A stretch of DNA of 8,767 bases from a virus (taxonomy: Duplodnaviria > Heunggongvirae > Uroviricota > Caudoviricetes), in IMG/VR virus record IMGVR_UViG_2534682078_000033. One strand, written 5' to 3'. This document shows, piece after piece, positions 1-6,000 of this stretch. Made by a program: the position numbers. Position 1 is the stretch's first letter, and each line of letters begins with the position of its first letter.

Positions 1-3000
1 TTGCTGAGTTTTGGATCGCTTGATGATGTTTCCCTGGCTGATGCCAGAAAACGCCGTAGCGAGTACAGGGCGTTAATTCGTGCCGGAACTGACCCGCAGG
101 ACCACGAGAGGCAAAAAAGAGAGACAGAGGCCCGAAGACAAGGGAACACGTTCGAAAATGTGGCAACAGCATGGTACCAGGTGAAAATCAGCCAGAATCT
201 GGCCCCCAATACGATTAAAGACATCTGGCGATCGCTGGAAAAATATGTATTCCCGTTCATCGGCAACACGCCAATAGACACCCTGACCGCTCGCAGGTTT
301 GTTGAGGTGCTTACCCCCATCAAGGAACGTGGCAACCTGGAAACGCTCAAGCGAGTTTTACAGCGTGTAAATGAGGTAATGGATTACGCCGCCAATAGTG
401 GGATGATTGATGCCAATCCGGCTATGAATGTGCGTAAGGCGTTCCCCTCCCCTGTAAAAAAACATATGCCAACAATCCGCCCCGAACAGCTGCCGGAGCT
501 TATGCAGGCTTTATCAGTATCGGCAACAGAACGGCAGACCAGATTACTGATTGAATGGCAGTTACTGACCGTAACCCGTCCCGTTGAAGCATCGTCGGCA
601 CGCTGGGAAGAAATCGACATGGAGGCGCAACGCTGGACCATACCCGCCGGACGCATGAAGATGCGCCGCGACCACGTTATCCCGCTTTGTGACCAGGCTA
701 TGGCAGTGCTGGAGGCTATGAAACCAATCAGCCACCACCGCGATTATGTTTTCCCAAGTCTGAAAGACCCACGGCAGCCGATGAACAGCCAGACAGCAAA
801 CGCAGCATTACGACGCATGGGGTTCGCTGGCGTGCTGGTGTCTCATGGATTACGCGCCATATTCAGCACAGCAGCGAACGAGGAAGGATTCGAGCCGGAC
901 GTAATCGAGGCGGCACTTGCCCACGTCGACACCAACGAAGTCAGACGGGCATACAACCGGAGCAACTACATAGAAAAACGCGTGGTGCTTATGCGCTGGT
1001 GGGGCGAATTTGTCGAGGCTGCGGCGACGGGCGTAACCCTCGCCAGTGGTAAAAGGGGTATCCGAGCCGTTTAGCTGTACAGAAAACCAGTAAAAACTAC
1101 GAAAACCATTTAAAACCGTCGTATAATTGCATCACATTTAACGACGAGGCCTTGAAAAATGAAACCGTTAAGATGCAAACAAATTTCAGATGCAATTGCG
1201 ACGGGCTGCAACTGGCCCTGATGGTTCAGCATGAATTTTGGTCAACCTACGATCCGGAGGACAGAACGACGGCCCCATCAAAAAAACAGGTAGTAGATTT
1301 CCTGGTATCCCGTGGAGCTTCCAGAAATCTGGCTGTAAGTATTGATAAGGTTGTACGTCCGGCATCCATGAAGACCGGAGGCAGGCCCAAAAAATGGCGG
1401 TAACAATCCTGAAAGCGGCAGAAATGCCGCTTTTTTTATAAATCCCTTTCAAATCATCAATATAAAAAACGGTGTATACCGTTTAAAAACGGTGAGTACT
1501 GTTTTTCCCTGCATCCGATGATTTACCGTATTTCTCACCGGAATACACCGGATTAATGAGGTAAATCACGATGGAAGCAATCAAAAAAGTCATCTTTCGC
1601 CAGGAAGTAAAAAAACTTATCCATATTAAGGCAGACAGCACGCTGCAAAGCATGATCAACGCCGGAGAATTCCCGCAGGGTTTTCGTGTCGGTTTGCGCC
1701 GTCGCGGATGGTATGAGGAAGACGTAATCGCATGGATGAAAGAACGCGAACAAGAAGCGCGCGGAACGACCGCTTAACATATATAGGGCAAATGATGAAC
1801 ATAAAAAAAGCGGCCCCGAAATGGAGCCACCTTTCTGAACAATTAACCCGCTGCGCCGTATGTGTCAACAATCATAAGCCTGGGCATGATAACCGCGATC
1901 AGGCTGGTGGGCAATTATCTTGCTTGTTGGGGCCGTATTGTGCTGCCATTTTCATCCGTTCAGAACGTGAATATTTTTTTAGAAACTCATCAAGGACAAA
2001 AGCGCATGGTGCGAATCTTTCTGATTCATGCTCGAGCGCCATATTTTCGTGCTCTCTGTTCGTTTTTTGCGATGGTGTATTGGTTGATTCTTTATTGGTC
2101 ATTGTGTGTACCTGTAAAGCAATGCGCCGTAGTACCTCACGCCACGGCGCTGATGTTTTTTATCCTTTGGGTTCAATACCGCGTTGCTGTAATTCTTTTC
2201 GGAGTACTCGCTTGATCCAGGTGGCTAAAGAAGTGTCACCGTCTGCTTTCGCTGCCTCTTCAAGTTGTGCTCTGAATTCTTCTGGTAGCCGCATTTGGTA
2301 TGGAGGCGATCGCTTTTCCAATGGTGTTGACATGGTAATTACCCTTAATTACTATAGTTACATGGTAATTACCATTGTACTTACCGTTATACAAAAAACA
2401 ACGCCCCGCAGTGGTGGCTCACATACGGGGCGTCTAACCAAACCATTAATTGAGGTAACGATTATGGCTATAAAAGAGCATAGCTTACTCTTTATACACA
2501 CACAAACGCCCCGGAAACGGAATAATCCGTTTCATAGCTCCGTTTTGTGTACTCATCCTGGCGGGCGATTCTTACGGGACTTTAGCCGCCGTGGGCAGCT
2601 TGCTAAAAATGCCTCCAACGCGAATAGTCCAGGTTTCATTTCTATCGGTATTAGTTGGATATTCAGAGGATTAGCCAGTTCGGCTTCAAGGCGAGCACAG
2701 GTTTCTAACTGCCTTTGCCGAATGATTTCATCTTCTTGCGTCTGCGTGTCTTGTATTGGTGATAGTGTGTTGTTGGTCATAGTACTGCCCTGTAAAGCAA
2801 TGCGCCGTAGTACCTCACACCACGGCGCTGATAGTGATTATTCTGATTCTTTGGCCTTGCGGCGCTGGAGTTCTTCACGTGCGACAGTGACGAGCTGCCC
2901 GATCTCCTCGGCGGCTTTGATTCCGAGTTTTTCCACCTGCGCCAGTGCATTGAGCGAAGAAATCAGGAGGTTTTCTCCGCTTCCTTCTGCCTGGCGGCGG

Positions 3001-6000
3001 GCGATTTCACCGCGCATGGCGGTTACTATGAATCCGGCGTTGCTTTCACCGTCCAGTTTTACGGATTCCATGCCTTCAATAACATCATGCGGGATCCGAG
3101 CTGTCAGTGATTGTGATTTTGCGTTTTTTGAACCTGTAGCCATCTGTAATCCTCTCAATGAAAGTGTAAGACAATATACACATAAAAAGTCTTACATAAA
3201 AGCATTGACATGTAAGCCACCTATAAATAAAGTTACTTACACCTTGTTAATGCAAGGTGCAGAAACGACGAAACCCCGCACTGTAGGAGCAGTAACGGGG
3301 CTTCTAACCACCAACGATAACGAGAGTATCGAGGTAGCTATGAGAAATCATACCACACACCCGCAAGGGCGGGACTCGCACAACCTGAATAAATACATTT
3401 GGCGTTTTATCGCCCTGAGCACTGCACAACCGCGCGTGATTACCATTGAGGCCACCAGCGAACAGGAAGCACGCCTGCAATCCCCGGCTGGCTGCGTGAT
3501 GGTATTCGCTGCCCGTATTCGTCAGGGGGTAGGCTTATGAGCCAGGAAATCACACTACAACAGGCAGCAGAACGCGCCCACCAAATCGAAGTTATTTGCG
3601 CACTGGCAGAGGATTACCCAAGCATGATGACCGACAGAGAATCAGGGGCAATCATCAGCTTACTTAAACGCCTTAGCGGTGAGGTCTGCGTATTCCTGAT
3701 CGATGAACAGGAAAGAAGAACGCTTATTTCTAACGAAAAAAATGCGGAGGGGTACATGTGCAATAAAACCACACCGGACGCAGCCGCCGCGCTCACTACG
3801 CTGATACACGCACTTATTGATATTGAATGCACGGCAGAGCTTGCGCAGGGAGAAGAACAGAAAGACCGGACACAGTTCGCCCTGGAATGTATCCGATACA
3901 TCGCAACGCGGTCGCTGAATGACGCTAAAAATATTCTTGTTGCTGATTGTGAAAATGGGGGGGGGTTATGCGTGATGATCGTTTTAATTCCCTGAAACAA
4001 GAATTTTCCGGCGTTCCTGATGATGCGGCTGATGCGCTTTCGTCAATGCCAGAACTTATTAGAGCGGCTTTTTTCTTACTTTCCACGAGAGAATATAAAT
4101 CAACGGGACTTGATGTACTGAATATCGCCGCCGATTATGCGGAATATGTGGCAGAGGCGCGTTACAGAAGAAAATTTCCTGAGGATGTAAGCCATGCGTG
4201 ATATTTATCTTGAAACAATAGACCGCGCATCACTTGCACTTTCTCACAGTGAAAACATGATGGAAATATTGCGGATGTGCCTTGAATCCTTTGGCGATAA
4301 TGAACGTAATGCAAAAAAACGCGGATTATTACATCATTAATAACGCTTCTTGAGTCTGTAATAAATGAGTTGCAGGAAATAGAGACATTGCACGACAGAT
4401 ATAACGAACAGCACACCGGAGAATAAAAATAATGAAACTTAAATATTCTGGCTTAACTGCCAGTGGCAACACTCACCCTAAATTTACGCGCGGTGATATT
4501 TACCGCGACCAGTACGGCGGCACGGTAATGATTAAGGGCGTGGCGGGACGGTGCGTAACTTACCGCCGTGAAGGTTACGAATATGATTGCGTGATGCCTG
4601 TTTATCAGTTCCGGCGTGATTTTTCTCTGGTACAGACCGCGCCGCATAACGTGCCCACCAGCAACGCCAGGGCACGGGCAAACATCCAGAAGCTGAAAAC
4701 CATGATTAACGGATTCAGGGGCAAGAAATGAAAAGCGCACCGAACTTAAAAAAACAGCCTTACGACAAGATGACCGAAGTCATCATTTTTGCGGGTAGTG
4801 ATGCGTGGGCACATGCGAAACAGTGGCAGGAACAGGACGGGCGACTGGCTGGCGATAATGTGCCTCCCGTTGTGCTGGCTGATGATCAACTGGATGAACT
4901 GGCAGACCTGAGAATCATCGACGAGGGGCGCTATTGTGTCCGGCTGTACAAGGCAGGCCACATCAGGCCATCAAATATTAATGCCATTGCGCACAAGCTG
5001 GCGGCGGCGGGTGTAACTGATGCGAATTATTACCCCGAAGGGATGCACAGCCAGAAGCGGGAGAACTGGCGCGAATATCTGGAACGGGAGCGGGGGAAAA
5101 AGCCAGGGGAAGAAAAACACCACCAGCGAAAAACCACGCTACCAATGAGCGTGGGATCTGCCGGATACGACACACAACTTGATTACGTGGTTAAGGGGAT
5201 TATTCCGGCGGTATCGCTGTGCAGCATATACGGGGCGAGCGGTTCATATAAATCGTTCCTTGCGGGTTCGTGGGCGTGTCACGTTTCCACGGGCCGCCAG
5301 TGGGGAGGCCGCAGGGTGGCGCATGGCGCTGTTCTCTATGTGGTTGGTGAAGGCGGTATCGGCGTTCCGCGTCGTGTAAAAGCCTGGGAGGTTGTGCACG
5401 GTGAGCAGGTGAAAAATCTGTATCTGGTAAACCGTCCCATCTTTCCGGCTGCCCCGCTTGATGTTGAGGAAATGGTTATCGCTGCCCGTCAGGTGGAACG
5501 GGAAACGGGTAAACCGGTTCGAATGATTATTCTGGATACGCTGGCGCGCTGCTTTGGCGGCAATGATGAAAATGATTCCCGTGATATGGGGGCGTTTATC
5601 CGTGGGTGTGACGAACTGAAACGGCGCACAGGGGCAACGGTGCTGGTGGTTCACCATTCCGGCAAGGATGAAACAAAGGGGGCGCGTGGTTCCAGTGCAT
5701 TTCGTGCATCACTGGACGCCGAATACCGGATACGCAGGGAGGACGCAGGCAGCGAAGCGCTGGTTATCTCATGTACCAAAATGAAGGACGCGGAGGAACT
5801 CAAAGAAGCAGCATATGACTTACGCGTGGTGGAGCTTTTTACCGACGCTGACGGGGAGTTAATCACGTCGCTGGTGGTGGTGGATAAGCCGCGCCCTCCC
5901 GTTGAACTGGAGCGCATCGAGGAGGCAGGGAACAAGACGGAGAATCACGCCGCGCTATGGCAGTGCATCAGAACACGAACAGCACACGGGGAGGCGTGCA

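Follow-up and report, generated by a model that had tools for sequence, protein, structure and literature searches.

The window analysed here is the whole 8,767-nucleotide (nt) stretch of the Caudoviricetes record IMGVR_UViG_2534682078_000033, and it is a phage satellite of Escherichia coli O111 of the phage-inducible chromosomal island (PICI) type. Between its alpA-like regulator gene and its replication genes lies a control zone with two tandem modules, each consisting, leftward, of a gene for a ribbon-helix-helix (RHH) protein, a near-identical stem-loop and a small open reading frame (ORF), and each facing a rightward TTGACA-17-TAnnnT promoter with repeated candidate operators and a structured leader. 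The features of this zone, from left to right, are the following.

1571 to 1777, plus strand: alpA-like gene for a helix-turn-helix (HTH) regulator of 68 amino acids (aa), from Pfam, PHROG and the Prokaryotic Genome Annotation Pipeline (PGAP).
1792 to 3540, plus strand: Eta-like frame without stops, open from 1717 and with 582 codons counted from the ATGATG at 1792, antisense through both modules.
1802 to 1836, minus strand: terminator of leftward operon 1, a hairpin followed by U7.
1899 to 2102, minus strand: small ORF of module 1, 67 aa, 'type A' (PGAP hypothetical protein; PHROG 21027, E=2e-12).
2124 to 2150, minus strand: stem-loop copy 1, within the block 2092-2166.
2160 to 2333, minus strand: Arc-like RHH gene of module 1, 57 aa, predicted repressor (PHROG, Pfam, hhalign, structural model).
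2327 to 2375, plus strand: rightward promoter 1, TTGACA-17-TACTAT at 2327-2355, with two GGTAATTACC candidate operators.
2401 to 2440, plus strand: leader 1, a stem-loop at 2401-2433 with the invariant tail TCTAACCA at 2433-2440.
2464 to 2508, plus strand: stump of a first icd-like gene, 15 codons from ATG 2464, Shine-Dalgarno (SD) sequence GAGGTAAC, in frame with the long ORF.
2494 to 2552, minus strand: terminator-like structure ending leftward operon 2, core hairpin 2514-2533 (-25.7 kcal/mol, z -4.7).
2553 to 2780, minus strand: small ORF of module 2, 75 aa, 'type C' (ORF, homologues, substitution pattern).
2802 to 2828, minus strand: stem-loop copy 2, within the block 2770-2844 (-24.3 kcal/mol, z -3.0).
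2838 to 3143, minus strand: YlcI/YnfO-family RHH gene of module 2, 101 aa, predicted repressor (NCBIfam, PHROG, structural model).
3164 to 3242, plus strand: four candidate operators of the TGTAAG(A/C)C type (3164-3172, 3189-3197, 3210-3218 and 3234-3242) around rightward promoter 2.
3271 to 3310, plus strand: leader 2, a stem-loop at 3271-3303 with the tail TCTAACCA at 3303-3310 (z -3.5).
3340 to 3540, plus strand: Icd/Kil-like gene, 66 aa, which opens the replication operon and forms the C-terminal part of the long frame.

A first-pass annotation of this DNA had described two analogous divergent modules, and every element that it named was found, with small corrections of coordinates; what it missed is that both modules lie antisense in a long frame that leads into the icd-like gene. 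Three of the four leftward ORFs are annotated by PGAP in NC_013364. The Arc-like gene is real, but the start proposed for it at position 2294 is not retained; the true ATG lies at 2333, in agreement with PGAP, and the later start is disfavoured because the shorter form loses the 'PPYQMRLP' beta-strand segment. This start codon overlaps the -35 hexamer of rightward promoter 1. The terminator of leftward operon 1 folds at -20.1 kcal/mol (z -4.4) on the minus strand as against -7.3 kcal/mol (z -0.9) on the plus strand, an asymmetry due to G.U pairs, and its strength on the minus strand alone fits the free passage of rightward transcripts. The two small ORFs, whose products begin MTN, are distant homologues with the common motif P..F.L..F(L/V). 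PHROG 21027, to which that of module 1 belongs, is a family with no function attached, and a homology search with that of module 2 returned matches from E. coli only, every one of them named hypothetical; its substitutions (130/45/154 by minus-frame codon position) fit minus-strand coding. A mini-ORF with a UUG start in the gap between stem-loop and small ORF was dropped as a candidate, since constant spacing preserves its frame trivially.

The profile check on the two RHH proteins returned Arc-like and YlcI/YnfO matches, and the family evidence for the RHH assignment is moderate. The Arc-like protein matches the PHROG 'Arc-like repressor' at E=4.9e-7 and Pfam Arc at E=0.0079 (16.5 bits, cut-off 20.4), and scores 20.1 bits on NCBIfam NF041551, under its cut-off of 30 for the N-terminal domain. 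The module 2 protein passes that cut-off with 71.2 bits (E=5.3e-20) and matches PHROG 6522 at E=1e-56. Homology between the Arc-type and YlcI-type groups extends along the entire domain (hhalign 94%, E=9e-8), and related alleles give weak HicB and RHH_1 matches. Against the PDB, the Arc-type profile found sub-threshold matches to Mnt (E=0.43) and NikR (E about 0.5), a second profile search yielded nothing useful, and single RHH sequences returned only designed helical repeats or noise. AlphaFold monomer models of both proteins have an extended N-terminus followed by two helices; the module 2 model (pLDDT 82.7) adds a long C-terminal helix at residues 59-100. Across the RHH genes of related loci, differences fall as 853/128/2270 over the minus-strand codon positions, with 2072 synonymous and 935 non-synonymous changes, the pattern of minus-strand coding sequence.

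Candidate operators are present at both rightward promoters, as had been proposed from the sequence. Promoter 2 reads TTGACA-17-TAAAGT at 3205-3233, and each promoter matches 10 of 12 consensus positions. Promoter-like matches are not enriched in the region (4 found, 3.7 expected), so it is their position and conservation that carry weight, not their count. The GGTAATTACC sequence occurs at exactly two places, 2334-2343 and 2364-2373, where 0.23 occurrences are expected, and forms part of the inverted repeat I17; the TGTAAG-type sites number four. Neither set occurs in the other module, and the two modules thus look orthogonal. In related loci, the GGTAATTACC operator accompanies the same Arc-type protein, and the TGTAAG-type motif accompanies RHH proteins with an 'L/VTAR' beta-strand. 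The repeats lie beside or across the -35 and -10 hexamers of the rightward promoter; those of YlcI-type modules, in addition, directly adjoin a conserved GTATAC, a possible leftward -10. The comparison took the most repeated 8-mer of the adjacent intergenic region for each of 21 beta-strand types and counted it in the regions of all other types, and the resulting matrix is diagonal. Cross-matches arise only between alike beta-strands, namely LTAR and VTAR with TGTAAGAC and two TTVR types with GT(G/A)TTTCA. This is strong comparative evidence for specific pairs of RHH repressor and operator, and the family matches and operator covariation together indicate that the leftward genes are real.

The opposite strand carries a long open frame. 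From 1717 to 3339 (541 codons) the icd-like frame contains no stop codon, as against 32 and 45 in the other two plus-strand frames, and in the non-genic parts alone the counts are none against 21 and 26. Resampling of synonymous codons in the four leftward genes gave an expectation of 3.7-5.9 stops, with a probability of none of 0.0096 from the genes' own codon pool and 0.0004 from E. coli codon usage. Base composition as the source of the open frame is ruled out by the other two frames and by this resampling. The frame starts 15 nt past the alpA stop, with an SD-like AGGG at 1785-1788 before the ATGATG, and the wobble positions of all four leftward genes lie opposite its own wobble positions. 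Among 66 distinct single-module loci, 65 have no stop in this frame, where the other frames average 9.8 and 17.8. Most loci have the frame either fused to the first rightward gene or closed no more than about 30 nt from its ATG, and most locus types have an SD sequence and ATG within 60 nt of the upstream gene's stop. The open frame has 433 codons in the prototype island EcCICFT073 and 237-558 codons, in the same phase, in Klebsiella, Photorhabdus and Serratia satellites with YlcI homologues; the Photorhabdus and Serratia elements carry P4-type genes, and the sequences 3' of their RHH gene are unrelated to those of E. coli. The amino-acid sequence of the plus frame is not conserved, and it is the open frame itself that is selected. 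Between the window and the O157 island, the Arc region has 8 amino-acid changes in the plus frame and 1 in the minus frame, and the 582-aa translation matches no family, Phage_ASH included, outside its C-terminal Icd-like domain (64.4 bits). The Icd/Kil-like gene itself scores 69.1 bits on NCBIfam NF033153 (cut-off 25). PHROGs label such Icd/Kil-like proteins 'transcriptional repressor', which probably goes back to the former annotation 'cI gene product' in P4. In the related islands L002 (4621-5214) and L004 (4561-5088), the stop-free frame is labelled by PGAP as an 'Icd-like' or 'BRO-N' pseudogene.

The hairpin that the first-pass annotation had noted in both modules is a 75-nt direct repeat (D1), its two blocks 83% identical with a single difference in a 44-nt core, and the flanking genes are unalignable. 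Copy 2 scored as terminator-like on the minus strand, with 12 pairs and the tail ATTGCTTTAC; in its commonest form the hairpin has 11 uninterrupted pairs and a 5-nt loop, and the loop is not strictly invariant, as that of EcCICFT073 differs. Stem variants stay paired as minus-strand RNA through G.U pairs, and the same variants are mismatches on the plus strand. The strong hairpins that follow the RHH gene in other genera are different ones, unrelated to this element. An Rfam search of the whole window (E<=10) gave the stem-loop no family, the sole nearby match being a terminator resembling Atu_C8, and a scan of species-representative genomes with a stem-independent pattern gave one match, in Shigella; the exact element is thus found almost exclusively in E. 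coli and Shigella. The stem-loop is most likely a 3'-end, attenuator or stabiliser of the RHH transcript that also sets the level of the small ORF, a role favoured because of the pairing on the minus strand only, the terminator-like score of copy 2 and the different hairpins in other genera. Pairing of its loop with the icd ribosome-binding site was rejected: the likeness amounts to a Shine-Dalgarno-like GAGG, the binding sites vary and the loop does not, and the EcCICFT073 loop has no GAGG. Some islands of the same family encode a ProQ/FinO-family RNA-binding protein (related island L003, 9315-9854), which could act on the conserved stem-loops.

The rightward leader had likewise been described as conserved, and it forms a 48-nt direct repeat (D2, 2393-2440 and 3263-3310) of 71% identity; a further 5' hairpin at 3240-3259 precedes leader 2. 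The 21 distinct leaders compared consist of an outer 9-bp and an inner 4-bp helix, a 3' bulge and an invariant YCU(A/G)ACCA tail. Of the 13 pairs, 9 show compensatory change, and the paired share of cells across the 21 variants is 86%; none of 500 shuffles reached the observed covariation scores, and slid controls were at most 50% paired. In the Rfam search the leaders matched no family, the C4 and c4-a1b1 models included. Processing of the RNase P type, which a stem followed by ACCA might suggest, was rejected, as the CCA lies 5-7 nt off the stem and the C4 model finds no match. Speculatively, the CA-rich tail could be a Rho-loading or a translation-enhancing stretch.

As a mosaic unit the module is standard: RHH genes, small ORFs and leaders change partners around a conserved stem-loop. 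In complete E. coli genomes the stem-loop block was counted 2696 times, in 1546 of the 5426 genomes. A sample of related loci was obtained by scanning viral contigs with an anchor outside the stem, and in all of its approximately 95 true loci the block stands right after the RHH stop and right before a small ORF starting MT(N/D), MN or MS. At least 4 Arc-type and more than 12 YlcI-type RHH alleles, four small-ORF types and about ten leader types are freely combined. Two hairpins per locus were found in 9 of the roughly 95 sampled loci, and the specific junction of the window is present in 110 of the 5426 genomes, in several serotypes and at 90-100% identity. A single module is thus the norm, and the tandem a recurrent minority. 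The two-module arrangement had not been recognised as one already described; it is real but not unique to the window, and the single module is part of EcCICFT073. The further suggestion of a mosaic immunity region with two repressor specificities fits the homologous RHH pair, the separate operator sets, the covariation over 21 types and the reshuffling. Comparison with single-module loci places the cut in the first icd-like gene at the junction to the terminator end of module 2. In the window the resulting stump is in frame, so that transcripts from promoter 1 could be translated across module 2 into the icd-like gene.

The closest known relative of this arrangement is found in satellite P4. 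In both elements the zone lies directly after alpA (vis in P4) and before the replication genes, and contains an internal rightward promoter. P4 Eta is a 199-codon frame that runs from the vis stop and ends in the same Icd-like domain (73.3 bits), and a long ORF of this kind is present in the window. The P4 eta gene is reported to hold the constitutive promoter and the CI/seqA immunity RNAs, to be coupled to the alpA homologue and to be translated only from an upstream, activator-dependent late promoter; its translation is reported to prevent Rho-dependent termination of these transcripts and to override immunity (PMC10111431). In contrast to P4, where the Rfam models C4, isrK and c4-a1b1 score 74.9, 60.8 and 44.1 bits, the window has no match to any of the three in the search described above; its long frame is without Phage_ASH, and immunity would be conferred by one or two antisense protein-repressor operons inside that frame. 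The P4 plan is thus kept, with its RNA immunity probably replaced. In P4 Eta, Phage_ASH covers residues 22-146 (P4 8168-8767), and the same DNA encodes the seqA and CI RNAs; the 'Ash' family may therefore partly reflect conservation of the RNA genes. The arrangement in the window is best classed with the P4-type immunity region, as a variant whose RHH cassettes are nested antisense in an Eta-like read-through frame.

Likenesses to other systems are more partial. At phage P22 immI, Arc and Mnt are small RHH repressors that act on short repeated or palindromic operators overlapping divergent promoters. In P22, too, a single short control region holds two RHH proteins that differ in specificity; unlike the cassettes of the window, however, the P22 repressors, to our knowledge, act on one antirepressor gene and are not tandem copies. 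We know of no antisense read-through frame, conserved stem-loop with small ORF, or structured leader at P22 immI. In P1 immI (c4 - icd - ant), an operon under immunity control begins with a structured RNA leader followed by an icd-type gene, and the window likewise has a structured leader before its icd-like gene. The Rfam C4 model covers P1 and P4, whereas the leader of the window misses C4 and c4-a1b1 and has its own covarying stem-loop with the YCURACCA tail. The Stl/Rpr master repressors of Gram-positive PICIs (SaPIs) resemble the present case in that a divergently transcribed repressor gene of a phage-inducible island separates its integrase side from its replication operon (PMC6092414). 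Stl, however, is a large HTH protein relieved by helper-phage proteins, in contrast to RHH proteins of 57-101 aa and a route through the activator AlpA.

These data allow a model to be proposed for the switch. It is probable, though far from certain, that 1792-3540 is an immunity zone built on the P4 eta/kil plan, with protein repressors in place of the CI RNA and overridden by translated read-through. Each module would form a leftward operon of RHH repressor, stem-loop, small protein and terminator, divergent from a rightward promoter. The RHH protein would bind its own two to four operator repeats at the -35 and -10 elements, silencing that promoter, and would probably regulate its own synthesis. 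Rightward transcripts would carry the stem-loop leader, then the Icd/Kil-like gene and then the replication genes. A helper phage may switch on AlpA, whereupon transcription from the alpA promoter would enter the zone from the left. By analogy with P4, ribosomes on the long frame may protect this read-through transcript from Rho, and the protected transcript could cross the repressed promoters and reach the replication operon, colliding with repressor transcription and being antisense to it. As promoter 1 reads in frame through the stump across module 2, silence would require both repressors, and a tandem element should be immune to two classes of related satellites. A wider claim is advanced more tentatively, as somewhat less likely than its negation. 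It holds jointly that RHH cassettes are the master repressors of Gram-negative PICIs and of some P4-like satellites, that they lie wholly antisense in a translated 'anti-polarity' frame selected only for the absence of stops, that induction sets AlpA-driven, ribosome-protected read-through against repressor synthesis, and that the pairs of beta-strand and operator form a specificity code of more than 20 immunity types that can be stacked in tandem.

Other explanations of the modules have to be weighed against this model. The RHH gene and its downstream small ORF might be a type II toxin-antitoxin pair that stabilises the island, with operators that are autoregulatory only, as the first-pass annotation had also considered. 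The order of RHH gene first and small protein second resembles RHH-antitoxin operons, and one Arc-type member matches Pfam HicB (E=0.00049). However, type II toxin-antitoxin genes typically overlap or abut, and the genes in question are 57 nt apart with a terminator-looking stem-loop between them. Neither small ORF matches a toxin or defence family in Pfam, NCBIfam, PHROGs or PADLOC, the last of which returned nothing credible; the operators overlap the divergent promoter of the replication operon; and the RHH gene of the Klebsiella, Photorhabdus and Serratia satellites examined is without an E. coli-type small ORF after it. A toxin-antitoxin pair is thus regarded as very improbable. It is also conceivable that module 1 is an inert relic of illegitimate recombination, that only module 2 works and that the tandem as such is without function. 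Promoter 1 is indeed followed by a gene of which 15 codons are left, fused to the left end of module 2; a short repeat, TTATACA.A.A.AAACGCCCCG (D7), adjoins the junction, and one related locus has lost leader 1 between D7 repeats. Yet the Arc-like protein differs by one residue from that of a single-module O157 island, its operators are perfect, the junction has been kept in all those 110 genomes, tandem loci hold different RHH alleles at both positions, and the frame is open across the junction in the window. Such a relic is considered unlikely, though less so than a toxin-antitoxin pair.

Two further alternatives concern the reading of the plus strand. The product of the long plus-strand ORF might be a functional protein of the 'Bro-network' or Eta-like kind, with a sequence that matters in itself; the leftward ORFs would then be secondary or partly spurious. 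PGAP calls this frame an Icd-like pseudogene or long Icd-like proteins in related islands, the zone has been described as Bro-network genes (PMC10111431), and P4 Eta matches Pfam Phage_ASH. Against this stand a 582-aa translation that resembles nothing beyond its Icd-like end, the excess of plus-frame changes in the Arc region, substitution patterns that fit minus-strand coding, and leftward genes made credible by their RHH matches and operator covariation; a functional plus-strand protein is accordingly held to be improbable, slightly more so than the relic. It has also to be asked whether the stem-loop is a DNA site or a plus-strand RNA element, either a terminator passable only by AlpA-modified or ribosome-coupled polymerase or a site for a conserved host or helper factor. 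Its sequence is nearly invariant across modules with differing genes, and a U-rich stretch, imposed by the conserved Lys/Glu-rich tail of the RHH protein, follows the plus-strand hairpin. In addition, AlpA of Pseudomonas is a processive antiterminator with which polymerase bypasses intrinsic terminators (PMC7969949). However, the stem variants pair only as minus-strand RNA, the plus-strand U-run begins 5 nt past the stem and is missing in YlcI-type modules, and the unrelated strong hairpins after the RHH gene in other genera are as expected of a 3'-end element. A DNA or plus-strand role is doubtful, though the least so of these four alternatives.

Several observations nevertheless weigh against the proposed repressor switch or parts of it. 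The binding of RHH protein to operator and the ensuing repression are predictions from sequence comparison, the Pfam RHH matches fall under their curated thresholds, and Foldseek searches of the monomer models against the PDB gave no informative match, although this might be expected of small obligate dimers. Translational protection from Rho is drawn from the analogy with P4, and if the AlpA of PICIs were a processive antiterminator like that of Pseudomonas, translation might be unneeded or additional. The frame changes between modules in 7 of the 9 two-module loci, and in a few loci it ends 73-127 nt before the first gene, so that continuity of the frame is a strong tendency and not a rule. 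Purifying selection on the small ORFs is weak. Finally, the near-invariance of the stem-loop within E. coli exceeds what a plain terminator role explains, and this uniformity makes a conserved partner possible.

The wider layout of the element agrees with its assignment as a satellite. A 1781-nt stretch around the modules is 100% identical to E. coli O111 chromosomes, and in strain 11128 the island is about 9 kb long and adjoins a tRNA-Pro gene and yejM. Its gene order is integrase, small ORF, HTH regulator, module region, Icd-like gene, DUF4222, RepA-family helicase, terS and major capsid gene. As in Gram-negative PICIs, int and alpA are co-oriented with the replication module, packaging and capsid genes are present and integration is site-specific. 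EcCICFT073 shares this order, down to the leftward YlcI/YnfO gene and the leftward small ORF that stand between its alpA and its Icd-like gene. The AlpA-like protein matches Pfam Phage_AlpA (E=0.003) and HTH_17 (E=0.0058), both under the curated cut-offs, and the PHROG 'excisionase and transcriptional regulator' at E=1.4e-7; its PGAP label is helix-turn-helix regulator. Upstream of alpA lie two tandem 20-nt repeats, AAAAACGGTG(T/A)(A/G)TAC(C/T)GTTT, at 1465-1484 and 1485-1504 with an inverted partner at 1531-1550, which are candidate AlpA-binding sites at the alpA promoter. To the right of the module zone, a run of nine G at 3955-3966 marks the junction of the ORFs 3537-3995 and 3968-4201, for which PGAP gives a frameshifted gene; it could be a slippage-prone tract or a sequencing-independent pseudogene. 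The gap 3' of the RepA-family helicase gene (6128-6330) is full of AAAAGTGGGGAG / GTGGGGA repeats that look like the iterons of a replication origin. Many copies of AAAGTTAC(A/C) occur at 7130-7440, just 5' of and within terS, where the in-gene copies encode KVTKKVTEKVT, and could be a packaging (pac) site.

The repressor of Gram-negative PICIs has been called 'unclear' (PMC6092414), and a later survey assigned to the zone that follows alpA co-oriented 'Bro' genes and, occasionally, immunity RNAs, stating that most PICI genes are unidirectional (PMC10111431); in the literature searched, no paper describing the leftward RHH operons was found. The cassettes point to the long-missing repressor of these satellites and to a route by which an activator may override it. 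If they are repressors, direct tests become possible of the means by which such islands stay silent in about a quarter of E. coli genomes, of the coexistence or mutual exclusion of islands that differ in immunity type, and of the way in which AlpA overrides repression. The table of operators and beta-strands could further be used as a set of orthogonal small repressors. The stop-free antisense frame, present in four genera, is in addition an unusually clean case of a frame kept for being translated and not for its product.

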